From: Amphiscolops sp. MND2022
Taxonomy: Eukaryota
Assembly (NCBI GenBank): GCA_964187785.1
Contig: OZ076409.1
Coordinates: 29,390,001-29,454,000, forward strand
Direction of reading: 5' to 3'
Length of the DNA stretch: 64,000 nucleotides
Shown: in pieces, positions 7,900-44,034 of the stretch
How positions within the stretch are numbered: the first letter of the stretch is position 1
Layout of the letters: every line of letters begins with the position of its first letter
The notes under the pieces: model-generated
Databases searched by the model: none
The model's input: the letters and a program-made list of their open reading frames with translations, nothing else
What the model was told of the DNA's origin: nothing
Position numbers and translations under genes: made by a program

Positions 7900-8391
7900 C
7901 GAATTCAAAAGTTGAAAAGATTGATGATTGATTTCCATTTCATGTAGACTTTCCTTCTGCTTCCTTCATCACAATGTTATCCATAACCTTTTGACTCAAA
8001 CTTTTTCATTATACACCCTGATCTTGTCCTTTGTCTTTATACTGGTGATGGAACTTCGCTTCCACTTTTTTATTTCTCTCTTTTGTTTCCTTCTTCATTC
8101 TTGCAATTTTGGCTCATTCGTCATTTCTGTCGTTTTTGGCCTTGTCCGAATTTTACCAACTCTATCAGTTCTTGCTTTTTCAATGAACCTGAGTGCTCTG
8201 GTTTCAGTGTATCTTGCATTCCTTCATGTCCGGATTAGCTCGATTGGGCAAAGTTGTAATAGTGTCGATTGATTACAGCTTCGAGCCTCTGGCTCTCGTT
8301 CTCCGACTTTACTTCTTGAAAAAAATCTTCTATATGCAAAGTCGGTCGTTCTCTAAAACAAGTCCATGGATCATTGCAAGTTTAGGGTATT
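7900..8391 (-). mobile_element. 3' part of old host Gypsy element B, split by the 18-kb provirus
   Basis: Degenerate K/R/E-rich minus-strand coding relic directly beside the GTATT TSD, collinear with 26434-29263. Confidence 0.5.
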
Positions 8392-11300
8392 TGTAGGATT
8401 TTTGACCATTTTTACATATACATATGAAGTTTATTTAAATCATTACTCAGCAAGGTTTATCAAAACGAACCAGGGGCGATATCCACTAATCACATGAAAG
8501 AGTCACATAGATAAAAAATCAAGTAAATGACGACAATAATTCACCCAATAAATCCAGTGCTTGCGCAGTTGTTCTTTTGATGCTTGAGGGCCCACCGCTG
8601 AGCAAATTTCCAATTTCGTAATGCCCCTCTGCCTTGTATTCGTAGATTTTCCTTCAGGTGCCACGTCGTACTCTCACATTGTATTCGTCCAACGTCCTCG
8701 TAATGATAGTTGAATCCGCGATGGTAGAAGCGTCCCACCCCGACAAATTAGTTGGCTTACCTGTATCTAGAATGAGGACGGCATGAGGCCGCAATCTAGG
8801 AACATAAGTTAAATCCCCCTGGCCGCTCAATGGTAAATCTTAAACAAACTCGCCTCCCGTTCACGTGGTCCCTTTTGAAAGAAATCAATAAAACTATTAG
8901 CATTATTACAGCAACGTTCTAATAAGCGGGAAGAACTATTAGTAGTAGTTGCACCCCATATCTTAACTCCCGTATGCAAAAGGGCATAAGAAACGCCTCC
9001 ACAAACTTAAATATGCGCATACGAAAACCAAGTGCCCTGTACTAATAAACCTATACAACTAGTTACAATTTGATCAATAAAGGAAAAAGAAGTAAGTCAA
9101 TTAGCAAAATCCATATCTCCCTGCATAGAATTAACAAAGTCACGAGTTACAAAATAATTTGGGCCTTTCGTAATATTCATTGAAGATGATCAATATCATT
9201 CTCAGAATCAAACCAAGTCAAATCGGATCTATCAGATCGTTGCTTTAAAACGCCTCTAGGCTGAGCATTCACGCCGGCAACAATGCAAGGCTGCGGGGGA
9301 GAGATTGAATTAAAATTAACAGGGGAAATAGTAGAGAAATGCAGCCGAAGTTCATGAATTATAGTCAAGCCAGAAACAGTATTATTAATACTAAAACCAT
9401 TGTAAATCTCGTTCGTACGTTCAACCACACCCTGACTGTGTGTTGAGTAATTAGTAGAGTACTTTAAAGAACGAGAAAATGAAGAAGCAGCCATTTTTCA
9501 CAGTGTATAGAGATTCAGTCAAATCGCTATATTAATACGTGTATTTGGAGGCATGTGAGAGTGAAACTTCACAGTGCGCGGTATAAACAATGAATGCAAC
9601 TCACCAAAGCGTGTCAGAAAGCGGAAGAATGGAATTGAGATCGCGCTGTGGATGGCTGTACGCATAGTTAATAAGAAAACGGCCGCCGCACACTTTGGAA
9701 TTATCCCCTCTGTTTATGCAAATTAAAAATTAAAACCCGATTTCTCAAAGATTAAAAAAGATAGCAACAAAACGTTTGCAGCATTCGATAGCCCGTCTAA
9801 AGGAGCGCTTGAGTTGCGAATATGAGCACCGTGCAACAACGGGAACCTATTGGGTAGAAGCATTGAATATAAGCTCTTGTAAAATTTTGACAATTTTCCA
9901 AAAACGAGTTTCCTTTAAAACATTCGTGTGATCACTACAGTTGTCAAAAATTTTTCGCATATGACGTAAACTAAAGTTGAACAAATGTCCTAACTTGTGG
10001 TGAATGGAAAAGAAATAATATTACGCAGTTTTTGAGATTTGACCCAGCAAACGTTAAAAATGGCCCTAAAATGGCCCTAAAATGGCCAAAATAGCCGTGT
10101 TTCGCGTGTTATCGCTTAGTACTCAACGTATAAGCGTACAATAGCCGCGTCAGTTGCAGCGTAGTTCTGAATTGAAGTGAATGAGTGAACGAAACAATAA
10201 ATAGAGTGCTGCGGCGCGCTAGCGAGAATTCCAAGAATTTGAAGTTGAGAATTTTCGTTGTCAGTAGTGAAATCGACTTACCAAAATGCTAATCGTTTTC
10301 GCACGTTTTGGACAATTTCGAGCTGAACCTTTCCGGTACACGCACACGAGTCTGGCGCACGTCGTTTAGCAGGAGCGTTTTTCCGAAAAAGGACCTGGTG
10401 TCAAGATATTGACCTCTAAATTTGGAGGTTATGTCACCAAAACTTAAAAAAACCTCTTTCAGAAAAAGTGTCACCAAATGTTGTTGAAACAAGCAAGAGA
10501 CGTTATCTAAATTGCAAAATACTCCTAATAGCTTGAGCTAGCGATGTGAATAGGCCCCCAGCCTTTATAGTCCGAATTGCCAGAGTAGCAGCCCTCCAAA
10601 GTTGAGAATCCGTGCAAAAGTTGGTTTGTGATTTTCGACTACGAACTTTAAAGGGCGTTTTCCACTGTAAAGGAGTTGAAACAGAAAGATAGCCAAGAGT
10701 AAATATTTGTAGCTCTTTCACCGGACTTTCACAACATGTTCTTGATTTCAGCCTTCAAAGATATGAACATTTAGTTTTTGCCCTTCAAAAGTGAAACACG
10801 AGAATCGACTCAATAGAGTTTGAATTAAAATTGCCTTTTAGGTCATTGTATTGTGTTTTGTTTTCACTCCAAGACCAATAGAGAATTTGCGGCGAGTTGA
10901 TTCTTTCGATATCTTCGATATCAACTCCATCCTCATGGAAACACAACTAAATTTTGCTAAAACCCTTGCTTATTGTTTTGTTGTGTTATATGCCTCCTAA
11001 TATTCTCCGCTATTATCGATGATAAAATATTATTCACTCTATTATTCGGTGTTGTGAAACTGTTTTTGTGTCTTTCAATCGACTTTTTTATTTTTTGCGT
11101 ATGAATTAAAGTTCAACCTGCTTCTTTTCATCAGCGATTAGACACCCTAAAACAGCTCAAGAGTAACGAGACAAACCCCCTGAAAGACGGTAAAATAGCA
11201 AAGATGTAAAGATCGTGATTTCCTTGTCACACTTACCCCCAACCTCCTTCGGTTAAGTTGATTTGTCTCTTCTTCGGAGTTAATAAAAATTTATGAAGAT

Positions 11301-11407
11301 ACTCAGACAGTCCTAGTCTCGTGTATGGTACCTACGGGTTCAAATGAGTTGTAGTGGAGCTATTCTCACAAATAGTTAAAGCTACTGGAATAACGAAAAA
11401 TCCTACA
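8392..11407 (+). repeat. 5' LTR (3016 bp)
   Basis: TGTAGGATTTTT...AAAAATCCTACA; collinear with 21186-23092, 24779-25308 and 25859-26433. Confidence 0.95.
8519..9494 (-). pseudogene. Decayed antisense ORF (~320 codons) inside the 5' LTR, unknown product
   Basis: ATG 9494 (MAASSFSRSLKY...). With about two frameshifts and a few stops it continues ..ITKGPNYFVTRDF..LRPHAVLILDTGKP..LGELLSSFT* (8519). Homologous copy in the 3' LTR. Confidence 0.55.
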
Positions 11408-11408
11408 T

Positions 11409-11426
11409 TGGCGCTCCTGGGTGGGC
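11409..11426 (+). promoter_or_regulatory. Primer-binding site, tRNA-Asn-like
   Basis: TGGCGCTCCTGGGTGGGC, 1 nt after the LTR end; 16/18 match to the complement of the vertebrate tRNA-Asn 3' end as recalled (TGGCGTCCCTGGGTGGGC). Confidence 0.8.
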
Positions 11427-11519
11427 TTCCTTTGTGTCTTTGTTATTACCTGTTTCCTTGCTTCACTTCTTTCCTTTCCCTTCCCTTCACCCCTTTGAGT
11501 TGCTGAAGTTTTTCTCACT

Positions 11520-12950
11520 ATGCCAGGAGACGAGAAAAACGAGCAGCAGATTTCTCCCGTCACCGAAGAAGATTCCAACGGCACCCACACCCTTAGTACG
11601 GTAAACCACTCCTTAGTGAGTCCACTAAACGTTCCTTCGTAGGATTGGCCGACGCGGCGAATGAGCGTAAACAAGATGCCTATAGGCAGTTGAAAGAAAT
11701 GGAAAAAGACGTGAAAAGATTTAAAATCGAAGAAGAATTAGTTTCGGACGACTCTTTGATCCTTGAACATGAAACTAGAAAACGACAAAAACCCTTGATT
11801 GAAAGAACGCCCATACAACCAGAAAAATTCCATAGTAAATATTACAACCGCTGGAGAAATTGGGTAAGACACTTCAAAGCAGTTGCTAAAGCCAATGGGT
11901 GGACCGGTAGTAAAAAAAGTGCAGCAAAGCCTACTTGTGTAATATCTTGGGCTCTTGAAGAATTTGACACTGTCCCCCGAAGGTATGTTGACAAAGAACC
12001 GGGTTGTCATCCCCCACCGTTGATGAACTCCGTGAAGTTCGAAAACCCAAAATGCAGCAATATCGCAGCCAGCGAGCCACGCGGTCAGGATTTACAGCAG
12101 ATAACAATGAGAAAACGAAGATTTAAGGGACTATTCAAGAAGGGTACGCCAGCTCGCCGACATAGTTTTCCTCGAAAAACCCCTCCGCGAGCGTGACCGT
12201 GATTTCGGGGAAACTTTGCAAAGAGCACAGGAACTCAAAGCAATCCACAAGACGCAAGAATCAAAACGCGAGCGAAAACCCGATAAACTGCGCTACTCAC
12301 AAGACGAATTGTAGGATCCCGATATAATGAAAGCGGACTACTTTGAATAACAATCAAATTGAAGAAAAATTCGCAGCTCTACAAACTTCGTTACCTACTG
12401 TAGCAAGTCGTTTTGACCGTTTCAAAAACTCCATTTGCCAACAAATCAGAGCAAATGTCCAAGCAAACTGAACAAAGCTTGAAACAAGCAGAAGCGTTAG
12501 AAAGTTCACAACAGCTTTTCGGCGGGCTGCCCCCGAGTTGGCAGCGTGCCCGTTTTTAAGCCCCTTTCACTCCTAATGTTCATGCGCCTCTGAACAGGGT
12601 GGGATCGTTAGGTCAGTTAAATATCTCCCACGCCCTCCCGAAAAAGCAGAGTGCTACAATTGTAAGACGACAGGTCACTACGCTAAACAATGCCCGAATC
12701 CTCCGCGGCCTATTTTTTTAAACTACCGGCAGCCGTATATGCAGTAGCAGGCTCTACTCGCGCTTGCGATTCGATCGTTTCCCCAGCTGCAAGTCAGCGT
12801 GTTCGTTCTAGGTCTAGGAATAACGATAGCCGTTTGGGACATCGAAATTGCAGAAGGCGGATCGACTTCGAAAGTTGGAAACAAATGTGTGATGAGTTTA
12901 GTCCTGGACATATTGCAAACAAAAATTGCCCATAGCAAATACATCACGGG
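11520..12950 (+). pseudogene. gag: gag (disrupted), with CCHC zinc knuckle
   Basis: ATG 11520; capsid-like WRNWVRHFKAVAKANGW; CYNCKTTGHYAKQC at ~12652-12693. Confidence 0.85.
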
Positions 12951-12959
12951 GGCAACGCT

Positions 12960-15900
12960 CTTAATCTCCTAAGAATCAGAAAGCCTGTGTTGTTGGGCCA
13001 AGATCGACACCGGCGCGAGCAGGATTTTGATGAGTTTAGAGTTTGGTAAAACTATTGGTAATCCAATAGCTCAAAACCCCGGTCGCTTAACGGGTCCAAT
13101 AGCCAATGAGATGCCTACCAAAGGTATCGTAAAAGCAGAGGTCAAAATCGGAACTTGCTACCGATGAATTTGTTGTTGTAGAAGATCGCTATCCAGAAAT
13201 CATGATAGGTTTAAAACTCATGATGGAAAACCGATGTACGACCGACTTAGTCGATCAAAAACTAACGATTACCAAAGATGATGGTTTCATCATCAAAGTA
13301 CCCATACAAGTTTTAAACGGGTATGTTCTTCCTCCGGAAGATGACGCCTTCGTTTGCGAAACGGTACCCCGTACTGACACAGTGTGAGCGGCCTCCAAAA
13401 TAAACAAAAACCTCGAAGAGGACGTAGAGGAGATTTTAAATTTAGCTACCCTTGGCCTCAAGAATACCGGAATAAAGGAAAAATTGTGAAACCTAATTCG
13501 TGATTTTAGAGACGCGTTTTCTCTGTCGTCGGACCCTTTAGGAACCGCGGTAAGAGTAGAACACCACATAGACATAGGCGATGCGAAACCGTTCAAAATC
13601 TCGCCTTATAAAATTGCTCCACACAAATTAGAATCAGTTCGCGAAGAAATTCATGAGATGCTCGATAAAGGAGTAGTTGTACCAAGTAAGAGTCCTTTTA
13701 GCAGTCCCATTGTTATAGTACCTACGAAAGATGGCTCAAATTGAATGTGTAGAGACTACCGAAAATCGAACGATGTTACAGTAAAGGACGCGTATTCGTT
13801 GCCTCGGATCTGTCATACGATTGATACATTACAAGGAGCGGCAATCGCCTCCTCTCTCGATTTAGCAAGAGGCTATTGGCAGATTCCAGTCGCGACCGAA
13901 GACCGCCACAAAAAGGCGTTTTGTACTCCTGTTGGAATATTATGCGAGCGCTTGAAAATGCCGTTTGGCTTAACGAAAGCCCGCCAACTTTCTAACGGAA
14001 CATGAACAACATCTTTTAGAGATCCCTGTATAAACATATGCTCATATTCCTAGATGATGTGTTGACGTTTAGTAAGACTCCAGTAGAACATTTGGAACAT
14101 TTGGAAATAGTGTTTAGAGTTGTGCGCAAGCCCAGGTTTCGTCCTAAACCGAAGAAATGTATTCTGTTTCGCACAGAAGTACACTATTTAGGTCATGTAC
14201 TTAACAAGGAAAGAATCCAACCAGATCCGAAACAGTTAGCGGCAATGGGAGCCTCCGACCGACGTCGCGGGATTTCGTTCATTTGTTGCCGTCTGCAACT
14301 ACTACCGGAAACTTTCAAAACTTCGCAGAAGTGTCTCGTCTACTTTATTTGTTAACCAGCAGAAGTTTAAATTTCACATGGACCGGAAAATATGGAACAG
14401 CGTTCCTAACGCTAATGAAAAGGTTGTTAGAAGATCCAATTATGTCTTTTCCGAGTTTTGAAACTCCGTTCATTATTGATGCCGATGCCAGTGATACTGC
14501 GCTTGGCGCAGTTTTGTCGCAAGTGATTGATGGGATAGAGTATCCGATTGCCTTTGAAACTCGAGTTCTAACTGAAACCGAAGTAAGTTATGCAACGATC
14601 AAGAGAGTAGCCCCAGGTGTTGTCCTAGCAGTCCAATAGTTTTGGCGGTACATTTGCGGGTCTAAGTGTATTATCCGCACAGATCAAGTCCTCAATGGTT
14701 GTTCACGCAAAATGCGGACAGAATGACTTTTCGAATGGTTCAAAAACTTCAGGAGTACGACTACAAAAACGTACATCGTTCAGGTGATGAACATTGTATC
14801 GCAGATGGTCTTGGTCGAAAACCAAATGACGTACCGCATTGACTCCCCGGTGAGGAAGAATCGTTAGAGAACTAATTGCGGAGTTCACAGTATTCGAAAG
14901 TGCTTTGTTTGAAGCAGAAGGCGATCTCCGCGTCGCCCGAACCACAGCTCGTGAGAAATTTGAAACGTCAGATGAACCTCAGATGATGTAGCTCGGCATT
15001 CAAAGATGCAAATTTCTCATCCCCCAAGAGAGGTCGTTCGTTATCGAGTTTTTTTGACTCCCAATTCTTTAGTGTTAAGTGTATCCGCAGACATGAGAGT
15101 AGCCAGTTTTCCCATTTGTGAAAACGTATTGTCATTTACCGCCTTTCTCATAGTCGGTAAACCGTGTGGTATTTTTTCTCGTGTACCGAGACGCTGAAAA
15201 AGGACGTTACTTGTATGTACTTTGTATGTATCACCAAGTATTGTGAAGGAGAAGTCGCCAAAAATGATATGTTGAAAGAATGTCTACTGAGCGTAAAAGA
15301 ACACGCTAGCTCCCATGGATTTTCCAAACTTGCAAGGCCCAGAATAGGTTGCGTTGATGATGACTTAGAATGGATGAATGTAGCTATTTGTCTGGAGGTA
15401 GTGTTCCAAGATTCGTATTTTACAATCTCTGTGTATACTCCGAGAGATCAAATGCAAATGTACCCCTCAGTTTCGTCAAGACGAGGTATTTGACGTTCCG
15501 CAAGCGTAGATTCGGCATGTTCCGTTGTCGCCGTTGAGGAAATGTTAGTATCAGAGCAAGTGGGGGGCATGTATCGTGGACAAGATCCGATAACGACCGA
15601 GCGTATGGTCAAACAATGGATGGTACTATGGGAATTTTATTCCGTAAAATGGTACGACGTGGAAATCGAGAGATTAGACATTAGAATATTTAGGGTCCAA
15701 CCCTATTCCCCGAGACGTCGCCAAAGTATGGTGTTGCCAGAGGCGCTGGAGCTTTGGAGTATATGGGACCAGGTCGCGCTAGCTAAGCAAAGCGAGTCCT
15801 CTATCGGAAATGGAAACCTAGGAATCGTGACCACGAAATATGGCAGGCCGTAGTTCCTTCGACTATGAGAGCTGAAGTGTTGTACCTGTACCAGTTACAT

Positions 15901-17348
15901 GACTCCCCTCTTAGTGGAGGTCATTTTGCAGCTGATAAAACGTTATCGAGGATAAAACAGAGATTTTGGCGGCCTGGTATATTGCAACATGTACGCGTTG
16001 CGCGGCGAGATCAACGCCTGGAAAAGGTCGAAAAGCTTACTGACAAACAATTGAAGCAAAAGCGCCGTTTCGTATTGTTGCCTCAGATATTGTGGGACCC
16101 GTAACGCTAGAGAAAAAGTCACCAGCGCGATACATTTTGGTCACTTCCGATTTGTTTACAAAGTATGCGGTTGCCGTTTCTTTGAAAGACATGACGGCTA
16201 AGACGGTGGCCACGACTTTAGTCGAAGACTGGAGTTTGAAAGTTCGGGCGCCCGATATTTTACATACTGATCAAGGAGCCAATTTCAATATCGAAGTGGT
16301 GAAGGATTTTTGTCAAGTTTTTATGATCGATAGAACTAGGACGTCCCCGTATCATCCAAAAGAAAATGGTCAAGTTGAACGATTCAATAGAGTTATTGCT
16401 GACACTATTTCTATGTATTGCGCCAAAAACCGCAAGATTGGGATCTCTAGTTACCCATGTCAATTTCGTGTACAATACCACCGTGCATAAAACTCTCGGC
16501 ACGACCCCGTTTTCGATGTTGTATGGGAAAAAGCACAAAATCCTATTGATTAGTTCTATCCGAAACCTCCGGGCGACCCTCGTTTAGAATTAGGCGAGGT
16601 AGGAGCTGCGTTGAGTGACAAGTTATACGAAGTGCACAGGCACGCGCAAATAACTATGGGAAAGAGCAACGTCGACAAAAGGATTATTATCGGAGAAAAA
16701 TTCGCGGAGAAGGCTTTAAGACAGGAGACTTGGTGTGGTTAATCCAGCCACACAAAACGAAATCCCGAAAATTCTATTTTCCTTGGCACGACAAGGCCGC
16801 TGCGAAGTGTTAAGCCAGACAAGTGAGGTGAATTTATCAGATTTGTAAGCCAGGTTCACCGGAAAAATGGCAGAATATCCATTTCAATTGTCATAAGCCA
16901 TTTTTAGGCGAGTACCTCCCAAAACAATCCCAGCGGATAGCGGGAAAAACAGTACCGAGTTATGTAGAAGTCGAGGGTGAGTCTGATTCATTCAACCAAG
17001 AAACCGAAAATAGACCATATCATGTATCCCGCACTACTTCGGCGGAAACTCAAGCCAATAAAAATCGGTTGCGCGTGTCGTTCCACAACATTCCCTGCGT
17101 GATAAGTGCCGAAAATGACAGAGACCCCTCTGACAATATACATAGATGTCCCCGAACAGTCAGATGAATCTTCGTTTACTGTTTATAATGTTTATGAAGA
17201 AACTGACGAGAGTAGATTTACTCCGCACCCACGTGATAATGAAGACAGAGAAAGCGATTGTTCAGATTTGCTGTTGATCAAAACGACACGGAGTTGTCGA
17301 CCGCCATTGCGCTTTGGCATAGACGAGTACGTGGTCAACCCAAAATAA
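12960..17348 (+). pseudogene. pol: pol (disrupted): protease, RT, RNase H, macrodomain, integrase
   Basis: IDTGA (~13003); DLARGYWQI, MPFGL and IFLDD (RT); DADASDTALGAVLSQ (RNase H); HDSPLSGGH, SDLFTKY, TDQGANF, NGQVERFNR (integrase). Confidence 0.93.
15006..15493 (+). other. TARG1/OARD1 (Poa1p-like) macrodomain inside pol
   Basis: SLVLSVSADMR...YFVCITK...LKECLLSVKEHASSHGFSKLARPRIGCVDDDLEWMNVAICLEVVFQDSYFTISVY parallels the OARD1 pattern SLAHCISED..YYLITK..L.AMK.H...G...LSMPRIGCGLDRLQW..V...IEEVF.....ITVY. One frameshift. Confidence 0.85.
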
Positions 17349-17723
17349 CATTAGTGTCTTCGGATGATGGTCAGGTGAGTTGAGTCATCCGATGTAGTGA
17401 AGCTCATCATTCGTTTAGCCGTTGGCGAGCATGACTAAGCGAATTACTGTAAGCTCGGACAGTTCATCACGAGGTGTTGAGTCAGAAAAAATAGCATCAT
17501 CTGTGTCGCTATTGGCTCTGCCTCATTCTTCAATTTAACTTCAACTTAGACACTCGCTAGAATAAAAAAAATGTAGTACTTATCCCTACAATCAATTCGA
17601 ACGACTTTTGCTTTCCTTCTCTGTAACTGCGAAATGAAAAACACCCAATATTGTCATATTTTGTTATCGTTCGATATTCCTATTATCGTTTCTAGTTCTT
17701 TTCCGACTCGCTAGTTTAGTTGT

Positions 17724-19845
17724 ATGATGAAACTTGTTTTACTTGTTATCGTTACTTTCACGCGTTGTACTCTGGGAGACGAGGACCATTTCGACCCTTA
17801 CGATTTTCAGAGGAGACCCAATCAACCAGGGATTGTAAATAGCACTCAATCTATCTCCGTCGAGGCATTCACTCCAAAACTCCCAGTTGTACTCGTTTAG
17901 TCCAATAAAACCATTTGGACCTGGATTGCTTTTCTTAAGATGTCTCATCTAGACCCGGAGCCTTTGAATGAAATTTTGGATAAGGCATCAAACCGGCTAG
18001 TCTCCCTTGATCTTCGTATGTTTGCCCGAGAATGCGCTGATCCTCACTTGTTCGAGTATCGGAAATTTTTTTGCGCGATAACCTGGCAGAAATTTTTCAA
18101 GGTCATCAAATGACCCGACAAGATTGACTAGCAATGCGGAGAGCACTCACCTATTTTCTGAATCATACTGTAGATGACATTCCGTTGGAAAACCTAATCG
18201 TTATATCAGATCTATTGTGGGAGCTATTGCAGGATTGCTGGTAGGAAGTGAGTTAGCCCAGGTCTTTTTACGCCTTATATTTGGTTCGGTGTTAAATAAA
18301 ATTTCAAGCTTCGTTGTTGACCTGATCCCATTTGGATCAGTGTATCGAAGTAAAGACCGTGAAATTATTGAAGAGTTGGCTAGAGAAATTGAAGTGTTAC
18401 AAAATGAGGTAGAGTATTTGAGAACTGAGCTGTTGGAAGCGATAACCGTACTTTTACCGGCTGACGTGGAAGGCAGAAAGTTTTTGACTTTAAAACAATC
18501 CCTCGTGGAAAACATCCAAATGTTGAAAAGCACAATTAATGGGGCGATAGATGAAGTATACGATTTTGTATAGCGAGCTGAGTCTGTCTCTAAGATAACT
18601 CAAGATCGACATCGCAATACATTGATCATTGCCGCAACATTCCAAAATTTGACCACTCAGTATAGAAGAATTGTTAAGGAATTCAATCAAAGACGCATCT
18701 CGTTGTCAAATGCTAGACGAAGCTATGTCATCGTTGGTTCACGGCTCTTTGCCTATATCCCTTATTCCGCCATTTTAAATTCTTATCACGTTACTGGTCT
18801 AAATGAGGCTATCCCCAGGTTATTCATCGTCGCTTATTATTTGTTTGAAAATTAAGAAACACGTGTTTGACGAAGGAAGGAATGCACATGTTGATTGAAA
18901 TTCCTATGTACGCGGGACACGGAATTCATGAGGTTTACCGGACAACGCCAAACCCTCAACCAATCCAAATTCCGAACGCGCAACGCACTTTCAACTCGCG
19001 AAAACACACTTATTATTGTCTTGGGACAAAACGAATTTTGCGGAAGTAACCGAACAACAGTTGTGTACGCATTGTTGGGGCTCCCATCGGCTTAGGCTAT
19101 GCAAAGACCTTTTCTCGACTACTAAATCGCAGAAAACGACATGTCTCACCGGATTGTTTTTTAATTTTCTCGCCACCGTATTGAAATTGCGTGCACAAGA
19201 AGTTGTAGCCCTTCCACAGCATCGGCAAGCAATATATCTATCGACTCGACCTACCTATTATTTTCTGCCAAAGCAGATTTCACTACGCAAAACATGCCCG
19301 GCACGGTCGATTATAGAGTTTCAGGTGTCAAAGTTGTCTAGTTCGACACATGTGTGAGGGATTTTTGCCGACCCCCCTAATACGACTATTGTTTGAAAAC
19401 TTGAAAGACCTAGAAAAAATTATCCTCCATCTTTAATGGGCGTTGTTCATCAAGAACTGTTGTCCCTTTCGAAATTATACTTGGCAGGATCGCCAGACCG
19501 CGCAATCACGGAGGAAATGCTTGATGCAATTGCCAAGTCATTTTTGAATGAAATTGAAAAAGTTCATACAACAGTTACAAAGAAAGTGTGGAGAGACATT
19601 GTTTTACCATGTGTAGTCGCGTTAATTGGTTTGATTTTATTTGGATTGTGAGCTTGTTATGCTGGGCCATCAAAAGGGTCAATTATACATCATGCAACAG
19701 TATATACATCGATTGCTGGGTGGGAGGTGAAGAAAAGAAACGGAAGCAGGCTAGAATAGCGGAGCAGCTTCAACATCTTCCCACTACATCTGCCACCGTA
19801 GAAGAGAAAGTGATTACTATTGACCTTTCCCCAATGGAGATTTAA
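17724..19845 (+). pseudogene. env: env-like class I fusion glycoprotein (disrupted)
   Basis: Signal peptide MMKLVLLVIVTFTRCTLG; RYIR (R-X-X-R, 18199-18210) followed by fusion peptide SIVGAIAGLLVG; heptad repeat DREIIEELAREIEVLQNEVEYL; Cys-rich ectodomain; C-terminal TM IVLPCVVALIGLILFGL; sequons NST and NLT; lies between pol and the PPT. Confidence 0.85.
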
Positions 19846-21174
19846 AAGCAGAAGTCACATCCCGAATGAGTATCTTCCTCAAAACCGTGAGAACAAAACG
19901 TTAACTTGTGCTGTTATTTAATTACTCCGCCCCACCCCGTATTTATTCGCCCTCATAACTTAACTGATAGGTCACTCCCGCTCCTTTTCCCACTTAGACA
20001 AATGAGGGAACTTGTTTAAATCAGAGATAAGCAGGACGCCAATCAGATTGAAATGATGAGAAAAAAAGACTTTGTAAGATAACTCAAAAACCCAGTATAA
20101 AACTTATTTCCTAGCTGAACAGTTGTTCGTACCTACATCCACTTCCAAGTTTTTGTTAGGATCCTAACATGAACAATTGAATTCGAAAATGCAACCAGCA
20201 CAACCTGCTAATAACTATAATATCCAATGTTGAAACACCGCAGCTTTTGTAGCAACCCAAATGTATTGCTCTGCTATCGCAGAGACGCGTAATGCCAACA
20301 TGCCTATAACTGCGGGAGTTCTGTCCCCCACCTTACGAACGGGAAATCCCCTGTCTTAGAAACTTAAGTTTATACTGTGAAATGACTCAACAGATTTTAA
20401 TGGCAGTTAGTCAGGCTTCCCTTGAGAAATAGGAAAGAGTCATAGGGACTCTGACAAGGATTCTTGCCTTGCCAGATGAAAGCCCACGAGCAGAGGGGAA
20501 CCCCCTCAGCACCTGATTTCATTGGACAGGGTCCATCGGTCATCAGCATATGTGGAGTTGGGTGCAACCTTGAGAGTCTCCCTGGGACCGATCATTTCAG
20601 GTTTACCCTCATCCGCCTCATCGCCCTCGTGTTGACATTAATTCTTTCCAAAGAGTCATGTTCAGACATTTAGATATCGAGAGTTAAACCTCGACTACGA
20701 CGACTGTATTGCCTACTCCAGCCACTGTCAGCAGCTCAACCTCTACTTCGCGCGCGGGAGCAGTGTTGGTCGACGCCGATAGTAGCGACACGGACAGCGT
20801 TAATATAACAGCGGCAGTGGTATTTCCATCACAGTCGAAGAGAAAATTTTTGCAGACAATGGATCCCCGAGTTCAAGGAAGCAGTTCTTCTTTGCCCTCC
20901 ACCTCCTAAAATTAGAGATATTTGTGAAAACCCGATATAAATCGGAGCACTTTTGTTAAACTCAGTATAATATTATGTTGTGAAAATATGATGTGCCGAA
21001 TCAAAGTATTAATGATGTGAAGTGGTTGTAATTCAAGAGCTCTTGTGTTCACAATAGCTAGAAGGAAGAATTACACAAGGCAAAATTAATACAGACTGGC
21101 CAACAGTCTAACCAATCATCTAAGACTACGCTAAAAATTTAAATAAACCAACTACTCAGGAGAGTAGTAGGCCC

Positions 21175-21185
21175 AGTGGGGGGAA
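21175..21185 (+). promoter_or_regulatory. Polypurine tract
   Basis: AGTGGGGGGAA immediately before the TG of the 3' LTR. Confidence 0.85.
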
Positions 21186-21304
21186 TGTAAGATTTTTGAC
21201 CTGTTTTTACATATACATGTAGTTTATTTAAAATATGACTTATCAAGGTTTATCAAAACCGGGGGTGATATCCACTAATTACATAAAAGAGTCAAATAGA
21301 TAAA

Positions 21305-22298
21305 TTAATAAGTAAATGAGGACAATAAGTCTCCCAATAAATCAGTGCTTGCGCCGTTATTCTTTCGATGCTTGAGGGCCCATTGCTGGAGCAAATACCC
21401 AGTTTCGCAATGTCACCCTGCCTTGTATTCGTAGAATTTTCCTCCAGGGGCCACATCGTACTCCCACATTGTATTCGTCCAACGTCATCGTAAAGATAGT
21501 TGAACCCGCGATGGTAGAAGCGTCCCACCCCGACAAATTATTTGGCTTACCTGTATCTAGGATGAGGACGGCATGAGGCCGCAAACTAGGAATATAAATT
21601 AAAACCCCGGCTGCTGAATGGTAACTCTTAAAGAAATCGCCTCCCGGTCACGTGCTCCTCTCTGAAAGAAATCAATAAAACTGTGAGCATTATTACAACA
21701 ACGTTCTAATAAGCGGGAAGAACTATTAGTGGTATTTGCATACCATTTGTTAATTCCCGTATGCAAAAGAGCATAAGAAGCGCCTCCTCCAACTTTAATA
21801 TGCGCATACGAAATCCAAGGGCCCTGTACTAATGAACCTATAGAACTAATACAAACTGATATGTTACAAATTGATCAATAAATGAAAAAGAGGTAGGTCA
21901 TTTAGCAAAATCCATATCTCTCTGCATAGAATTAAGAAAGTCACGAGTTACAGAATAATTCGGGCCTTTCGTAATAATCATCAGAGGATGATCAATATCA
22001 TTCTCAAAATCGAGATCAATATCATTCTCAGATTTATCAGATAGTTTCTTCAAAACGTCGCTAGGCTGAACATTCACGCCGACAAGATACAAGGCTGCGG
22101 GGGAGAGATTGAATTGAAATTTTGTGGGGAAATAGTAGAGAAACGCTGCCAAAATTCATGAACTTTAGTGAAGTCAGAAACAGTATTATTAATAATAAAA
22201 CCATTGTAAATCTCGTTCAAACGATCAACCACACCCTGACTACGTGTTGAGTAATTGGTAGTGTACTTTAAAGAATGAGAATTTGAAGAAGCAGCCAT
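21305..22298 (-). pseudogene. Second copy of the LTR antisense ORF
   Basis: ORF pieces 22074-22298, 21898-22152 and 21357-21584 match the 5' LTR copy. Confidence 0.55.
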
Positions 22299-23092
22299 TT
22301 TTCACAGTGTACAGAGATTCAGTCGAGTCGCTATGTTAATACGTGTTTTGAGGGTATGTGAGAGTGAAACTTCAGAGTACGCGGTATAAACAATGAATGC
22401 AACTCACCAAAGCGTGTCAGAAGAAAGTGAAAGAAAGAAATTGAGATCGCGCTGTGGATGGCTGTACGCATAGCTAATAAGAAAACGGCCGCCGCACACT
22501 TTGGAATTATCCCCTCTGTAAATGCAAATTAAAAATAAAAACAAGATTTCTCATAGAATAAAAAAGATAGCAACAAACGGTTTGCAGCATTCGATTGCCC
22601 GTCTAAAGGAGCGCTTGGGTTGAGAATATGAGCACCGTGCAACAACGGGAAGCTATTGGGTAGAAGCATTGAATAAAAGCTCTTGTAAATTTTTGAGGAA
22701 TTTCCAAAAATGAGTTTCCTTTAAAAAGTTCGTGTGATCGCTACAGTTGTCAGAAAATGTTCGGGTATGACTTAAATTAAAGATAAGAATGTTCTAACTT
22801 GTGGTAAAAGGAAAAGAAATATTATTCAGTAGTTTTTGAGGTTTGACCCAGCAAACGTTAAAAATGGCCAAAATAGCCGCTTTTCGCGTGTTATTGCTTA
22901 GTACTCAACGTATAAGAGCACAATAACCGCCTCCTTTGCAGCGTACTTGCGAATTGAAGTGGATGAGTGAACGAAACAAAAAACAGAGTGCTGCGGCGCG
23001 CTGGCGAGAAACTCCAAGTATTGAAAGTTGAGAATTATCGTTGTCAGTAGTGAAATCGACTCACCAAAATGCTAACCCCCCGCACGTTTTGG

Positions 23093-24766
23093 GCTTTCAA
23101 AAAATTGACTATAAGTGAGTAATACCAAATTCTGTTTACAGAAAAGTAATTCTTAGGAAAGAACAGGAAAACAAAATTTGAAACACATCACAACAACATG
23201 TATTGCGTAGATTTGCAACTGTTATTGATTATACTTCTTATTTATTTTGTTCCTTGTTTCCAGAAAGTATTTTAGCTAATCTCCACTTGTTTCCGTCCAC
23301 GACGAGAGCATAATTGCCACAAGAAGTTTTGAGAGAGACAACTTCGATCAAGCCATAAATCTTTCCATGAAAAAATGTTTAGTTTCAGTGTTGACGGTTT
23401 TAATTCCTCACATGAAAGCATCAAATGATCCCATGTTTCAAATTCTTCTCCACATGCAAAACACAATAGGTGGAGTACAAGATTTTCAGCCACTTGTTTT
23501 GTTTATCTAAGTACGAGTTCATTAGAAAGCGACAAAGGAAGTTTTTATCAAACGAAGTGAGTTTTCTATTTTTCTAAATGTTTCTTATGACTGAGTACAA
23601 AAGATTGGTGCAACATTTAGTTTTTGTTTGATGTGGCTTCTATTTTTTGAGATAATGGAACGTTTATTGGGAAGTTGTTCAAAAAATTATATATCTCTTT
23701 CGAAATTGTCTCTATTGTTTTTTTTAAGTGTGGTAAAATACTTCTGAAGTGTTATTTCTTCTGTTTTCAGTTCGAGTATCTTCATGTGCTCTCTCTGAAA
23801 ATGTTTTTCTAATTCTGAATATGTTTTTGATCTTTTATAGGCATTGAGGTATTTTTCTTCCCTCGGGTTAAGTGCTAGGAATTTCAAATTCTTGATTTTT
23901 GCAGCTAAAAAGAAGTATTTCGAATAATCTTTAAGATTTAATCACCCTTCTTCAATTGGTAACGAAGGAAATTCTCTGCTAATCTTATGTTTTTCGTACT
24001 GCCAGAAGACGTTTGTTATTTTTGATTGAACTTTCCGAAGATAACTTTTTGTCCAAAATCTCGTGTCTTAGATAGTGAATTATTTCAGAATAGACAAACG
24101 TCTCGATGTTTCTGGTTTTTGCGCGGAATGAGCTGTTTTTTTAATACAAAAGTTTCTGCTGAGATAAACGCATTCATTATTGTGTTTTTCGTTTTTGTAT
24201 TTAGACTTTTATTTAGCGAAATGAATACTCCAAGAAATTTTTTTTTCACTTTTATTATTTTTTCCTAGGCATGCAATTTTTCTGCTTTTGAAAGGATTTA
24301 GTTTTGAAATTGTTGAATTTGCTTCCAATCCTGCTACTTCGTTGAAATGGTCCAGTATAATCAACATTTTTCTGAGAGATTTGTTAAAAAGTCTGATCGT
24401 TGTATCGTCTGCGTAGGCGATACATTTTGTTTGTTGTTTTGATTTTATGTATTTTGGTTTTTTAATTCTCTGCAGAAGGGGCTCAAGGCATAGGAAAAGA
24501 TCATTGCTGAAAGGGGACAACCTTGTCTTACTCCTCTATCAATCTTGGATTTAGTAGAAATTCCATTTTTCATTCGATTGAAATCAAATGTTTCCTTGTA
24601 CATGAGCATAATCATTGTTTGAGTACTTTTATCAATTGGACTTTTTTCAATTAGTTTTTGTATAAAACTACGTTCTACGCAATCAAAGGCTTTGCTAAAG
24701 TTGATTGCTATAAGTGATTGGTTTCGCGTTGTTTCCGGGGCGTAATGTTGAATTTTGTATCCTGGG
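23093..24766 (-). mobile_element. 5'-truncated non-LTR retrotransposon (L1/Tx1-like RT plus C-terminal zinc finger)
   Basis: FSKAFDCV, RGVRQGCPLS, YADD, CFACGEEFETWDHLMLSC. 12-bp TSD CGCACGTTTTGG at 23081-23092 and 24767-24778; the site is single-copy in the 5' LTR. Confidence 0.9.
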
Positions 24767-25800
24767 CGCACGTTTTGGTTGATATCGAGCTGAAGCTTTC
24801 AGGGTAGACGCACACGAGTCTGTCGCACGGCGTTTAGCAGGAGCGTTTTTCCGAAAAATGGCCTGGTCTTGAGCTATGACCTCTAAACTTGGAGGCCAAG
24901 TCACCAAAAATTGAAAAATGACCTTTTTCAGAAAAAGTGTCCCCAAATTTTGTTGAAACAAGTCAAACACTTTATCTAAAGTGCAAAAAACTTCTAATGG
25001 CTTGGGCTAGCGATGTATAAAGACACCTAGCCTTTGTCGTTCAAATTGCCGGAGTACCAGTCCTCCAAAGTTGAGATTTGTGCAAAAGTTGATATGTGAC
25101 TTTTGACAGCCAAATTCAAGGGCGTTTTTCACTATAAAGGAGTCGAAATAGAAAGTTGGCCTCGGACTAAGCTTTTGTAGCCATTCTAATGTACGTTTAA
25201 CTGATGCATTTGATCGGAACACACTAGTTTTTGCACTTCATTTGTGAAACACGAAAATCGACTGTTTAGAGTATGAATTAAAATCGCCTTTTAGGTCATT
25301 GTAAAGTGTTGGAAGTTATTTCCTTCAGCCATATTTTGCTGAAGAGAGTTGTCACGAGCCGTGTGGGAAAAAATCACAATTGTGCAAATGTCAACTGGTG
25401 GAACTGAGTAGAAAAAGTTCTTCTGATGAACCTTTAGTACCGAAGTAGGAAAAACTATATTGCTCAACACTTAGTCAGGTCCCCAAAAAGGAAAGAAGAC
25501 GAAAAATGAATAATGATATTACCAAACCACCGAAAAAATAACTTTGGCCAACTTTGCGCCATTTTAGCGACACACAATGTGAGTTGAAATCTACAGAACG
25601 TATTGCTGCTTTGAGTCCAATAGCATCTCGCATCAGACACCGGACTATCGAAATTGCAGGTTTCCTTCGTTTGGCCGGTTAGCCCGTGCCTTCATCCTAA
25701 TAACCTGAAGCAGCCTGATATATTGCTACCCCTCCGTCCCCTAGTACGGATTTCGACCCGGAAGAGGGTGGACAGCTGGTCTATCGTATTACATGTAAAA

Positions 25801-25860
25801 TTGCCTAAGTGGGCTTAGAATACACGGATTTGCCTAAGTGGGCTTAGAATACACGGATTT
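25801..25860. repeat. Tandem duplication of ~29-30 bp (TTGCCTAAGTGGGCTTAGAATACACGGAT)
   Basis: Direct reading of the sequence. Confidence 0.9.
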
Positions 25861-26433
25861 TGTTTACACTCCAAGACCGATAGAGATTTTGCGGCGAGTT
25901 GATTTTTTCGATATCTTCGATATCAACTCCGTCCTCAAGAATACACAACTAAACTTGTTGATGAAACCCTTGTTTTTTGTTTCTTGTGTTATTTGCCTCC
26001 TAATATACTACGTAATATCATCCGCTATTATCGATGTTACAATATCATTCACTTTATTGTTCGTGGTTGTGAAATTGTATTTGTGTCTATTAATCGACTT
26101 ATTTATTTTATTTGTTTGTTGCGTATTAATTAAAATTCAACCTGCTTCTTTTCATCAGCGAAAAGGCACCCTAAAGCAGCTCAAGAGTAGCGAAACAAAC
26201 CCCCTGAAAGACAGTAGTAAAATAGCAAAGATGTAAAGAGCGGGATTTCCTTGTCACACTTACCCCCACCGCTTTCAATTAAGTTGATTCGTCTCTTCTT
26301 CGGAGTTAATAAAAATTTATGTAGATACTCAGCCAGTCCTTGTCTCGTGCATGGTACCAACGGGTTTCATTGAGTTGTAGTGGAGATATTCTCACAAATA
26401 GTTAAAGCTACTGGAATAACCAAAAATCTTACA

Positions 26434-29263
26434 GTATTCAGTATTTGGCGTTTGTGTTTCGAACGCGTATTTCTCATCCTTTCCTATCTATGATCCTATT
26501 GCAAAGAAAATGCCTGATAATTCGTTAGCTTTTCTATAACAGTACCTCCTTCTGTGTTAAACACCGCTCATTTGCTGTTTCAATCATCCGTTTTACATTC
26601 CTATTTTCAAGACGGTCTTTCATTGCACGTGTAATATAATATGCCAATTATAGCTATTTCTACACATACAATCCAATTTTCCACTTCTAGAGCTGTTCAC
26701 GTTTCCGTAAGTGATAAATCTGGTTTTCGATACTGAACAATTCTAAAATTCTGACACTTTATCTGTAGTAGGATTTGGTAAAAATGCTTCCGGCTACACG
26801 GAGTTACGTCCAACTGTCTCCAGGAAAACACTTTTTGCCGATTGGTGCATTTTGAAATGGGCCGACAAAGTCCATCGCAAAATCGTCATTTGCAAATGAC
26901 GATTTTGCGATGGACTTTGTCGGCCCATGGGTTTAGGTTTCCAAAATTGTTTGAGACTATATGCACTTTAGAATTTTATCTGCAATTTTGCACTGCGGTC
27001 AGTTATTGGCCTTTTCGACGTCATCATGGTAGATTCTCGGCCACTACACATCTGCCGCATCTATCAGCCTTGCGTCTCGCCCTGTGTGTCCGAAATGAAT
27101 GACTGGTTTCTGTCGTAACTTTCGGTGTAGCCAAGCGCTTTTCTAGGTAAAGTAAGTTATCTGAATCTAATAAGAAATAAAAATGTTTCTCTCCTCTGAT
27201 CCGGTAACATGGCAATCTGAGCCGTTTCCTTCAACTGTTCAAGGTTCAATATTTCTTGTGAATAAAGATAGTTCTCATTAAAAGCTTGCACAAAGAGTTT
27301 GCCAGTTCGCGATTCCCTGGTGTTTTGTGATAATTTGCCAATTTGCAATTGTTTGCTAAGACTCTCTATTATCGTTTCTGTCGAAAAATTGTTTCTCAAA
27401 ACAATGCTAATTTCGTTCACGACGGTCAAAACACTGTTCTCAGCTTTGGAAGGCTACTGGTAGTTTTTTCATTTCCTATTTGTTGCCGTTTTGTATTGAT
27501 TGCTCTTATTTATTGATTCATTCTTACGTTAGTTTTAGACCAATCATTAAGCATTTGCGCTGATTTAAGAATCCTTTGATCCTTCAAACCAGGATGGATG
27601 TCTTGACAAATAGCCTGTCATTCCCATGGTTCATCCTGGTGCTTAAGCAACCGTTAAATCAAATAGTACTCAAAAAACCCTTTCGCAAAACTACAGCTAA
27701 CAATTCTAATAGTTCCAACAATTGAACTTCTGACTTAAACTCTGTTAGCACTCGTGAGCCATAAGGTATTGGTTTCCTGCAGTTTCGTTCTATTGATTGA
27801 AGTAGACACCAAGCCGTTGTTTACTTGCACAAAGAAGATTTCTCTTTTGGGAATTTCTTTCGCGTGACCCTTCTTGCTTCCGACTTTTCATGCAAAATTT
27901 ATTCTCATGTTCACTTGTCCACGATCATTGTAAATCTTTCTTCAAAATATCTCGAATAGATTACCTGTGTTGGCTAGTGAAGACGCATCGAGAGCTTTCG
28001 ATAACTCGCAACTTTTGCCAAATGATGCGCTTTTATTCTTTTGGGTACAAATGAAGTGTCATCAATGAACACGAATACTTCTCTAAATCTAGCTAATATA
28101 GTGTCCATTACCTCTTGAAATTTGTCACCACTTCTAGACCATTACAAAACTATTACAAAACGGTATAATCTTGTAGGTTCGCATCCAATTATCTGAACAT
28201 GGCAGTGTTTCCCTGTTAAGAAATGTAGTGGAAGTTGTACAATCGTAACTCGGAGAGCACATCACCCAGCATGTCCAGAGGTTTTTCATTTTGTACGGCG
28301 CCGTGTCACACTTTCCTTCACCTGAAACCTTCAAAACCATCGGGTCTTTTCCAGAACTTCTGTCGTCCCGGTAGTCATCTTCACAACTCCTTGTGCTCGT
28401 CTGACATTTTAGTTCTATTTGTCAAAATGGCGGGCGGTGGATTTCTTGTTTATTCTTTGAATTCTTTTGGAATTTCAATATCTCTCGAAGTGGCCTTCAT
28501 TCTGCAGAAGTTACAAATGGTGCCCAGATCTTTGAAGCTATATAGGTGATTTGCTGTGAAATTGATTGCTCCAAATCGCCAGCTTTTTTCTGCTTTGCTA
28601 ATATCGCGACTGCTGGTTCTTTTTTACCATTGTTGTTGTACATGGTTGACCGATTGCCGTGGCAACCCATCCTCAAATGCGATAGCAAACAGCAGTGCAT
28701 CTCGTGGATTTTCTGTGAGTTTAGAGCATAACTTTTCTTGTCTTGTTTCTAAGACATACTCAAGATGAATATGTCGTACAGCAAACCTTGCGTTTGATCT
28801 CCAAACCAAAAATGCACGTTGCCGCTAAGCCGTTCAAGATAATCACGAATTGAGGCAACAAATGATTTGGTTTCTTCCTTTTAGCCAGGACCCTATGACG
28901 ATCCAGCCTTCTCTACCTACGAAACTCGAAGCATGTTCCGCTATTCTCCAGCAGTTCGATTAATTCGATTGTGGAAATGTTTATGTGCTGGTATTTGTCC
29001 ATTAACAATTTACGTCCAATTTTTCCAATAGCAAGGGATAACAGACTTACATTCACATTCCCCAACAATCCTGAAACTTGAGAGGTTCTCCTTCGCTTGT
29101 TGACTTTGTGATTTCAAACATCGAATCAGAAAATTTGGCAAGCATTGTCAGCTCGAAAAACTTAACCCATTGCTCTCAATCTGTCGTCATAGTTTTTCCG
29201 CATCCTGCTAGAAGTATCGAATTCCAGGAAACGGTGCAAACGTGGACTCTTTTTGTTCATTAG
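26434..29263 (-). mobile_element. Old, internally deleted Gypsy element B (gag, RT and integrase relics)
   Basis: Minus strand DKFQEVMDTILARFREVFVFIDD (~28058-28126); gag-like QEKLCSKLTENPRDALLFAIAFEDG and WEQWVKFFEL-like relics. Confidence 0.7.
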
Positions 29264-29535: not shown

Positions 29536-29735
29536 NNNNNNNNNNNNNNNNNNNNNNNNNNNNNNNNNNNNNNNNNNNNNNNNNNNNNNNNNNNNNNNNN
29601 NNNNNNNNNNNNNNNNNNNNNNNNNNNNNNNNNNNNNNNNNNNNNNNNNNNNNNNNNNNNNNNNNNNNNNNNNNNNNNNNNNNNNNNNNNNNNNNNNNNN
29701 NNNNNNNNNNNNNNNNNNNNNNNNNNNNNNNNNNN
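29536..29735. other. Assembly gap (200 N)
   Basis: Run of N. Confidence 0.99.
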
Positions 29736-43100: not shown

Positions 43101-44034
43101 TTTTGATAATTTCATCTGACCGTATGCATAGTCGAGATCAGATTTGGACATCATTATTTCTTTCGTCCGGTCTCTTGTGATTTCTACCGAAACTTGGTTT
43201 AACAGTTCTTCCATATTCGGCATGTGTGGTCGGGTTTTTATACAGATGTCGTTCAGTTTTCTCGAACCTAATGCAATAGTTACCGACTTGTCGTTCTTTA
43301 CCGTAACTACCAGCGGTGAAACAAAACAGTCTTCATCAACGTGTTTTACTTTCTCCAAGTGTCCGGTTTTTATTATTTTTTCCAATTCTCTCCCGACGTC
43401 TTCTTGTAGATGTAGTGGGATCGGTCTTGCTTTTTGTTTCACCGGATAATGTCCCGGTTTTAATTGGATGTTGATCTTGGTATCTTTTATCGTGGTGTTA
43501 TTTTTAAATAGGTCCGGGAATCTTTCAATTATTCGTTTCTTTTCCAAATGGTTGCTGCCCTGTACTCGGATGTTTCCGATTGCTAAATTGAGGTTTTTTC
43601 ATCCAGTTCATTCCGAGTAACGGTGTAATGTAATCAGAATTTGCATTTTTTGTTTGTTGTTCTCGTATTCGATATCCGCCGGTATTTTTCCCCGGAATTT
43701 CACTTCATTTTTGTTCACGTCTTGGTATCGGTGTTTCTTTTTCTGTATTTCGGTTCGCTTCATTACATTTTCGTCTACGGGCATATTGAAATTGGTGATC
43801 CGGTATCCACTATGAATTCTTTTTCGATTCCGTTTACTTTCACTATTGTTGTTAGGTATTTGTTTCTGTCTGTAATTCTGTTTATTCTTTCGATTCTGGG
43901 TATACTCGTCTCTGATTCATCGGATTCTCCTCCAATTGCCTCTAATTCTTCTTCGGTAACATTACGTACTTTGCGTTTGTAGTTTTCTATTTGTTTGCAT
44001 ACGCGTGAGAAATGTCCTTTCTTCCCGCAGTTAA
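40184..44034 (-). mobile_element. Gypsy element C (zinc knuckle, PR, RT, RH, INT; decayed, 5' truncated); its 3' LTR probably lies below 40184
   Basis: CGKKGHFSRVC, IVDTGSPIS, DLDYAYGQ, WLDD, TTDASKTGLG, AVERAIQTLK; PPT-like GGGGGTAAGAGGGGA at ~40184-40199. Confidence 0.9.

Follow-up and report, generated by a model that had tools for sequence, protein, structure and literature searches.

The question raised by this locus is how a single provirus comes to hold a macrodomain, an envelope (env) gene and an antisense open reading frame (ORF) inside its long terminal repeats (LTRs), and what these additions may do for it. The locus lies in a window of 64 kb, that is, the whole stretch of DNA analysed (positions 29,390,001 to 29,454,000 of contig OZ076409.1, assembly GCA_964187785.1, Amphiscolops sp. 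MND2022), where a Ty3/Gypsy provirus spans positions 8392-26433. An earlier sequence-only reading had described a complete provirus with target-site duplication (TSD), primer-binding site (PBS) and polypurine tract (PPT), and had placed the three additions in one element. The TSD, PBS and PPT are indeed present, but completeness holds for the layout only, as every ORF is broken; the three additions were all recovered, since macrodomain, env and LTR antisense ORF, as well as a further ORF (ORF4), could be placed by tblastn with the proteins of young sister copies. The explanation favoured here, with modest confidence, is that of a young env-bearing Ty3/Gypsy lineage with an antisense LTR-encoded JmjC oxygenase acting in trans, a pseudo-enzyme macrodomain and exchangeable cassettes. 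In the sequence-only reading the LTR ORF had been left unidentified and ORF4 had not been listed. The LTR-encoded JmjC gene is the most unusual part of the element and, as a candidate for counter-defence, is to be preferred to the macrodomain.

The window copy is old and inactivated, and its sister families are very young. With a 901-bp stretch of pol as query, 239 candidates were obtained, and 40 of them were scored; among the 19 loci fetched besides the window, 18 share 97-99% identity with one another and about 82% with the window. Surroundings were fetched for 10 of the 19, mostly chosen for open frames, and for copies found via the LTR ORF. LTR pairs are 98.7-99.97% identical in 14 of the 15 elements compared. 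The intact young anatomy comprises a gag of ~470 codons, a pol of ~1,610 codons from stop to stop, an env of ~755 amino acids, an ORF4 of ~277 amino acids and one antisense ORF of ~330 amino acids per LTR. Two families, 56-88% identical in protein, have intact versions of macrodomain, env and LTR ORF together. Family C has the full layout, with identities of 86% for reverse transcriptase (RT), 75% for env, 61% for the macrodomain, 58% for JmjC and 56% for ORF4. Family E is more distant (RT 47%, LTR ORF 35%, env 51%); tblastn found no macrodomain in it, and a pairwise comparison matched the C-terminal half with E 0.002 and left the N-terminal half unmatched, suggesting only a weak macro-like remnant. 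Because the additions are present across separate families (all three in A and C, env and LTR ORF in E), they are old family features and not private to the window locus. A secondary-insertion origin of the three was rejected, as they are shared by sister families. Copies without the additions, which the sequence-only reading had taken as the sign of such an origin, do exist, and many lack env or the LTR ORF; against this stand the two families that keep all three intact.

The LTR antisense ORF is predicted to encode a JmjC-fold Fe(II)/2-oxoglutarate (2OG) oxygenase under purifying selection. The Pfam JmjC model matches it with E 0.0013, under the curated cut-off, and the Atlas places it, at 0.97, with a cluster in which 43% of the members carry Pfam JmjC. 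The AlphaFold2 model (pLDDT 77.5) aligns in VIA-align with JMJD6 at Z 13.3 (256 residues aligned, root-mean-square deviation (rmsd) 4.5), JMJD5 at 12.8, TYW5 at 12.5, FIH at 12.0 and PHF2 at 11.8. Foldseek gives 260 matches at E <= 0.001, and every one of those listed is a JmjC-fold oxygenase, UTY/UTX, FIH, KDM7, PHF2 and KDM2 being among them. The residues H167, E169 and H243, together with K184, which is presumably the basic 2OG-binding residue, are the same in all 10 of the intact carriers compared, whose pairwise identities range over 15-84%. The 150 hits in the library include many decayed fragments; where a hit covers the site, the triad residue is kept in 46 of 67 (H), 63 of 68 (E) and 70 of 81 (H). 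A broad JmjC alignment was too variable for patterns. The ratio of nonsynonymous to synonymous change (dN/dS) is 0.12 between families A and B and 0.13 between B and C (NG86, single pairs), and between A and C 58% of residues are identical where synonymous sites are saturated. An open frame of at least 300 codons is found in 27 of the 30 top JmjC loci. The protein is very probably catalytically active. It has in common with the JmjC-only oxygenases JMJD6, JMJD5, TYW5 and FIH the metal-triad pattern (HxE here) and structural Z-scores of 12.0-13.3; it differs from them in showing 11-13% identity, and their substrates are not transferable to it.

The JmjC gene is a self-contained antisense unit within the first third of the LTR, counted from the 5' end. 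It would belong to U3, lying upstream of the element's promoter and pointing away from it. Families A and C have a TATA-like box around LTR position ~2150-2210; the JmjC start is ~1 kb away, and box and gene point in opposite directions. An antisense AATAAA is found near the LTR 5' end in the window and in families A, C and E. Placed in this way, the gene would be untranslatable from genomic RNA, would be duplicated into both LTRs by reverse transcription and would be expressed from integrated DNA via its own antisense transcript. It would also stay intact in solo LTRs, and three solo LTRs flanked by 5-bp target duplications do have the JmjC frame open (L109, L111, L113). As the entire gene is retained in a solo LTR, LTR recombination, which is normally inactivating, would not remove an active enzyme gene. 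The protein, reader-less and JmjC-only, would modify a host factor in trans, leading to easier expression of mobile elements, and the gene may help elements counter host control. Accessory ORFs located in U3, or expressed antisense from the LTR, are familiar from MMTV sag and HTLV-1 HBZ; unlike these, the gene described here encodes a JmjC-type enzyme, is a whole antisense gene within the LTR and survives in solo LTRs.

Several observations weigh against this explanation. Sequence searches of the PDB, with a single sequence or a profile, found no JmjC and gave only spurious matches. The top VIA-align Z-scores lie within about 1.5 of each other, and model pLDDT falls below 50 at residues 164-167, which span the first metal ligand. 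The TATA-like box is degenerate in the window 5' LTR. The antisense AATAAA is also present in the JmjC-less LTR and is therefore not specific evidence for a JmjC transcript. The U3/R boundaries, and with them the U3 location of the gene, are inferred. Finally, the best Foldseek E-values belong to the histone demethylases UTY and UTX (KDM6).

This last result bears on a different view of the enzyme, according to which the LTR gene codes for a histone demethylase acting on lysine (or arginine), which removes repressive marks such as H3K9me from the LTRs of the element and from other transposons; the retrotransposon would then encode its own anti-silencing enzyme. This view is a possible, although doubtful, alternative. 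KDM7, KDM2 and PHF2, with the Z-score given above, are also among the structural matches; the LTR that houses the gene also bears the promoter, and the gene turns up in four types of element that are unrelated to one another and all face chromatin silencing; and a precedent is offered by KDM4-like JmjC-only genes in giant-virus insertions, for which silencing avoidance has been proposed (PMC11244446). However, JMJD6, JMJD5, TYW5 and FIH have the highest Z-scores over the whole chain and the highest Foldseek TM-scores, with TMq up to 0.38 for FIH as compared to about 0.26 for UTY. Pfam gives no PHD, Tudor or zinc-finger reader domain in the LTR ORF, which is no more than about 8-17% identical to solved JmjC proteins. 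The structural ranking is led by JmjC-only hydroxylases, and a reader domain is lacking; for these reasons the favoured explanation leans to a hydroxylase acting on a non-histone protein or an RNA-processing target, slightly ahead of methylated histones.

The env and JmjC genes are optional modules which behave as exchangeable cassettes. All four combinations of env presence or absence with JmjC LTR presence or absence occur. The env copies are themselves young, 32 of 40 scored matches being at least 97% identical; among the best-scored candidates, a JmjC LTR lies downstream of 9 of the 32 young env copies, and 9 of 16 JmjC-LTR pairs enclose a young env copy. In the JmjC-less LTR, the first 1.1 kb is replaced by an unrelated 0.44 kb, and the two LTR forms are 96-97% identical elsewhere. 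What replaces JmjC and env in variant copies contains no long ORF and has no informative match to the proteins collected here. In the pol-selected copies, where the macrodomain is present by construction of the query, env is absent in 9 of 10 and the LTR ORF in 10 of 10. This speaks against a fixed architecture with three additions and weighs on the favoured explanation too: JmjC-less LTRs are at least as successful, and the JmjC gene is not needed in cis, because all 10 of these copies do without it. Action of the JmjC protein in trans would explain the thriving of JmjC-less copies. ORF4 was also seen between JmjC LTRs in short elements without a pol match (L107/L108), which are possibly non-autonomous. 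At G000:C11:37.10-37.13 Mb, three JmjC LTRs follow one another every 12.7 kb and enclose partial env sequence, which amounts to a tandem array of proviruses.

The absence of JmjC and of env from many young copies, and the exact exchange of the JmjC-bearing 1.1 kb, would also be expected if the accessory ORFs were passengers, that is, host or neighbouring-element sequence acquired by template switching and of no benefit. Such an origin is very improbable and is largely refuted by the selection result: dN/dS is 0.09-0.13 for JmjC and ORF4 across families, the frames are open at saturated synonymous divergence, and the metal ligands are invariant across element classes.

JmjC genes are indeed not confined to this lineage. 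A genome search with a distant homologue yielded many further intronless JmjC ORFs, and nine of these loci were examined together with the family E pair. Seven of the nine belong to a second Gypsy lineage, whose RT is about 25% identical and whose pol has about 1,930 amino acids; in it the macrodomain follows the integrase in most members and is itself followed by an antisense JmjC gene and then, in 6 of 7, by an F-like env about 25% identical to that of the window lineage. That a distant Gypsy lineage also has macrodomain, JmjC and env, though arranged differently, suggests that these accessory functions have been selected for repeatedly. A BEL/Pao identity for this lineage was rejected, as Pfam gives Gypsy-type RNase H and integrase models. 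A BEL/Pao element (L160/L161, G000:C11:7.34-7.36 Mb), with identical LTRs of 243 bp, carries an intact antisense JmjC ORF after pol. A pPolB element (L142/L143, G000:C2:23.20-23.22 Mb) has a JmjC ORF in each of its 4.6-kb inverted repeats, which are 99% identical, and a central pPolB/endonuclease VII-like ORF. In the JmjC tree, an LTR-embedded group is separated from a group joining the second Gypsy, BEL and pPolB carriers (support 100/99; the tree is unrooted, with long branches at the split). The latter group also occurs in 10 short metagenome contigs, with an env neighbour in one and a macrodomain neighbour in one; viral contigs gave no related loci for env or either JmjC group.

This distribution has suggested a broader reading, in which the JmjC genes form a shared counter-silencing toolkit. 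One reader-less JmjC family would have spread over two distant Gypsy lineages, BEL/Pao and pPolB. In the window lineage it would have moved into the LTR as an antisense gene complete in itself, present twice in every provirus and once in every solo LTR; the enzyme made from these copies would erase repressive chromatin marks in trans, and JmjC-less copies would be free-riding. This reading is rather unlikely. Among the second-lineage loci (L144/L145, L146/L147, L148/L149, L152/L153, L154/L155, L158/L159), L148 shows a weak dUTPase match, and L148/L149 has direct repeats of ~350 bp which, as delimited, do not have TG...CA ends. In another second-lineage element, a 914-codon ORF with RT and PHD domains is inserted in opposite orientation between the macrodomain and JmjC (L151:1716-4457).

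The macrodomain sits between RNase H and integrase, in frame within pol, and that of a sister copy matches human TARG1 (OARD1/C6orf130, PDB 4j5q) with E 4.6e-21, which assigns it to the TARG1 subfamily by sequence. The TARG1 G43, I44 and G123 positions are A, P and V in family A; comparable pocket changes occur in all six lineage members, neither Gly43 nor Gly123 being kept in any. The Asp125 position, taken as catalytic in TARG1, is kept in all six. It has been reported that Glu at G43, I44 or G123 of TARG1 abolishes ADP-ribose binding and activity, and that the G43E and G123E mutants still bind RNA (PMC5928194). The lineage macrodomain is thus most likely a retained pseudo-enzyme, serving as a binding or structural module and not as an ADP-ribose hydrolase, and its pocket changes suggest repeated decay to a non-catalytic module. 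This interpretation is tempered by two facts. The position of Lys84, which is catalytic in TARG1 (PMC8501950), is kept in five of six members, with Arg in family C (to which two of the six sequences compared may belong), and the TARG1 evidence at G43, I44 and G123 covers Glu substitutions only.

The sequence-only reading had regarded the macrodomain as a possible counter-defence enzyme. In its full form, this view holds that a working enzyme removes host ADP-ribosylation from element proteins or DNA in an infectious complex retrovirus, and it can draw on the TARG1 homology, the kept Lys84 and Asp125 positions and the constraint on the domain (61% identity at saturated synonymous sites). Moreover, one of four second-lineage macrodomains checked, representing one subfamily, has canonical TARG1 motifs (E 1.4e-27), and macro domains have been reported in fish epsilon-like endogenous retroviruses (PMC4977317). 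The view is nevertheless doubtful and is considered unlikely: the positions required for ADP-ribose binding are altered throughout the lineage, the other three second-lineage copies are degenerate and have lost the lysine, and most sampled copies are without env. TARG1-like macrodomains are very common genome-wide (1,551 candidates, the best 150 scored), mostly in long ORFs of many sizes, and the matches include a repeated ORF of ~834 codons.

The env protein is likely F-type, and its layout fits a class I fusion protein. An RxxR site at residue ~159 is followed by a hydrophobic stretch, a transmembrane segment lies at ~660-690, and 12 cysteine positions are common to families A and C; the N-terminal hydrophobic segment passes the hydropathy cut-off in family C only. 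In the Atlas, env scores 0.91-0.93 to Baculo_F, Fusion_gly and Gypsy env clusters, the first two at 0.92-0.93, with a recognition of 1543, in the weak range. No F-family Pfam match appeared among the families shown for 36 members, and the PDB gave no sequence match with single sequences or a profile. The AlphaFold2 model of env has a pLDDT of 42, and its viral fold search, with rmsd values of 20-70, was uninformative. The ORF4 gene, which follows env (young examples at L032:5129-5962 and L097:4118-5098), has no Pfam family and a dN/dS of 0.09 between families A and B, which indicates an orphan protein under purifying selection.

Transposon-encoded counter-defence enzymes are known from few cases, namely orchid AlkB, fungal TET/JBP and giant-virus JmjC. 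A conserved JmjC oxygenase in the LTR of an animal retroelement is therefore a directly testable counter-defence candidate, and the coexistence of natural JmjC-bearing and JmjC-less LTRs, with promoter regions otherwise nearly identical, provides a built-in control. In orchids, Ty3/Gypsy elements with an AlkB-type 2OG oxygenase ORF have been proposed to counter host surveillance (PMC9289625). An extra 2OG/Fe(II) oxygenase gene in a Gypsy element is common to both systems, whereas the orchid enzyme belongs to the AlkB family, is a demonstrated m6A RNA demethylase and comes from a plant, and the enzyme described here is JmjC-fold, antisense inside the LTR and accompanied by env. The KDM4-like JmjC genes of Amoebidium giant endogenous viral elements, proposed to be anti-silencing, likewise represent a reader-less JmjC on a mobile element (PMC11244446). 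They differ in belonging to a giant DNA virus, in containing introns and in being recognisably KDM4, while the genes described here are intronless, are carried by retrotransposons and have no assignable KDM subfamily. In bdelloid rotifers, ORF3 enzymes of LTR retrotransposons are shared among retroelement classes (PMC5408684). The points in common are an env that resembles the F protein of paramyxoviruses, in one rotifer lineage, and enzyme ORFs found in unrelated classes within one genome, but the shared rotifer enzymes are a GDSL esterase and a DEDDy exonuclease, and the words "macro" and "JmjC" are absent from that text.

With regard to env, Chary and Hayashi (eLife 2026, PMC13524379) have described Ty3/Gypsy "ancient errantiviruses" with F-type env across many animal phyla, comprising 1,512 elements. 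The env-bearing Gypsy part of the present element is for this reason not new. The idea of an env-bearing complex Gypsy lineage thus holds insofar as macrodomain, env and LTR ORF are family features, and is reduced by the optional nature of the modules and by the prior knowledge of F-type env. The gag-pol-env order, LTRs with a tRNA PBS, multicopy young families and an env with furin site, fusion-peptide-like segment and transmembrane segment are shared with those elements. The RNase H-integrase bridge holds the macrodomain in the window lineage; PMC13524379 names "pseudo" and "mini" domains. Its main text leaves macrodomains and antisense or accessory ORFs unmentioned; seven of its supplements give no JmjC or macrodomain among the matches listed, 4 of the 14 "macro" matches being seen to be species names, and the window-family PBS 11-mer is absent from the tables searched. 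The available passages of PMC6431247 do not mention macro or JmjC. A word search of the open-access literature, a scope outside which Repbase, Dfam and GyDB lie, turned up no paper that describes a JmjC gene carried by a retrotransposon or a macrodomain in the pol of a Gypsy element.

The layout of the window copy is collected in the table. Both LTRs have TG...CA ends, and an identical 5-bp target duplication stands at each end of the element. Pfam recognises the zinc knuckle, RT, RNase H and integrase in the broken window frames, and the order protease-RT-RNase H-integrase in intact sister pol. Among solved structures the RT is nearest to Ty3 (E 6e-90, as compared to 2e-42 for foamy virus and ~1e-29 for gammaretrovirus), and by sequence the element is an errantivirus in the operational sense of an env-carrying Ty3/Gypsy. 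The slippery heptamer at the gag/pol overlap suggests that pol is expressed by a -1 frameshift. The tRNA-Asn 3'-end pattern has 384 genomic matches as compared to none for the reversed control, and a tRNA-Asn was called at three of four fetched loci matching the PBS pattern. A dense tandem array of the tRNA-Asn 3' motif, with a spacing of about 200 bp or multiples, occurs at G000:C7:47.64-47.69 Mb and is probably a large tRNA gene cluster supplying the primer.

Table. Features of the provirus in the window, with positions counted from the first nucleotide of the window.
Feature	Position	Strand	Evidence or remark
Left TSD (5 bp)	8387..8391		same 5-mer at 26434-26438
5' LTR, 3,016 bp, TG...CA	8392..11407	+	self-BLAST and global alignment with 3' LTR
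AATAAA, candidate poly(A) signal	8430..8435	-	antisense strand, just downstream of JmjC stop
Antisense JmjC ORF, broken, presumed U3	8506..9497	-	tblastn, 55-70% to young-copy protein P0060
PBS	11409..11427	+	complementary to 3' end of host tRNA-Asn(GTT)
gag remnant, CCHC zinc knuckle	11517..12744	+	Pfam zf-CCHC; tblastn
pol remnant: protease, RT, RNase H, macrodomain, integrase	12714..17345	+	Pfam on window and intact sister pol
Slippery heptamer, X XXY YYZ type	12717..12723	+	gag/pol overlap; same heptamer in window, families A and C
TARG1/OARD1-like macrodomain within pol, ADP-ribose pocket residues altered	15024..15451	+	sister copy against PDB; window mapping by tblastn
env remnant (~755 amino acids in young copies), probably F-type class I fusion protein	17727..19866	+	tblastn; sequence features
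ORF4 remnant (~277 amino acids in young copies), Ser/Thr-rich tail	20189..20876	+	tblastn
PPT	21178..21185	+	just before 3' LTR
3' LTR, elongated	21186..26433	+	LTR-LTR comparison
Antisense JmjC ORF, second broken copy	21295..22301	-	tblastn
LINE-type fragment, 5'-truncated, ~1.7 kb (RT, zf-RVT)	23093..24766	-	absent from 5' LTR; Pfam RVT_1 E 3e-8
Stretch of ~550 bp missing from 5' LTR of this copy	25303..25857		partly matched in young LTRs
Right TSD	26434..26438		matches left 5-mer

The decay of the window copy is considerable. The two LTRs differ at 340 of 2,952 aligned sites (11.5%; Kimura two-parameter distance 0.125), with 163 transitions and 177 transversions and, as far as this level of analysis goes, nothing that points to hypermutation of the CpG type. 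The longest stop-free stretches in the window are 199 amino acids for gag, 148 for pol, 141 for env, 72 for ORF4 and 106 and 96 for the LTR ORFs. The "giant" LTRs of the sequence-only reading are not a trait of the family, whose natural LTRs measure 3.0-3.9 kb. A true LTR of 5.2 kb, the length of the 3' LTR, was rejected, as the fragment of a long interspersed nuclear element (LINE) and the ~550 bp extra account for it. The LINE-type fragment is a later insertion, foreign to the family. The ~550-bp stretch is either a later insertion in the 3' LTR or, because it is partly matched in young LTRs, possibly a deletion from the 5' LTR.

Other features of the window lie outside the provirus. Minus-strand open frames of 289 and 244 codons occupy a GC-richer stretch at 464-2435, and a run of 200 N is found at 29536-29735. 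Another repeat, with subunits of ~173-187 bp, occurs in diverged (65-85%) copies, direct and inverted, at 35430-37760, 46620-50150, 52640-53200 and 60080-63550. Minus-strand ORF fragments at 41694-44128, with a weak RT match (42975-43445, E 1e-6) and a strong strand skew, are probably a decayed LINE.

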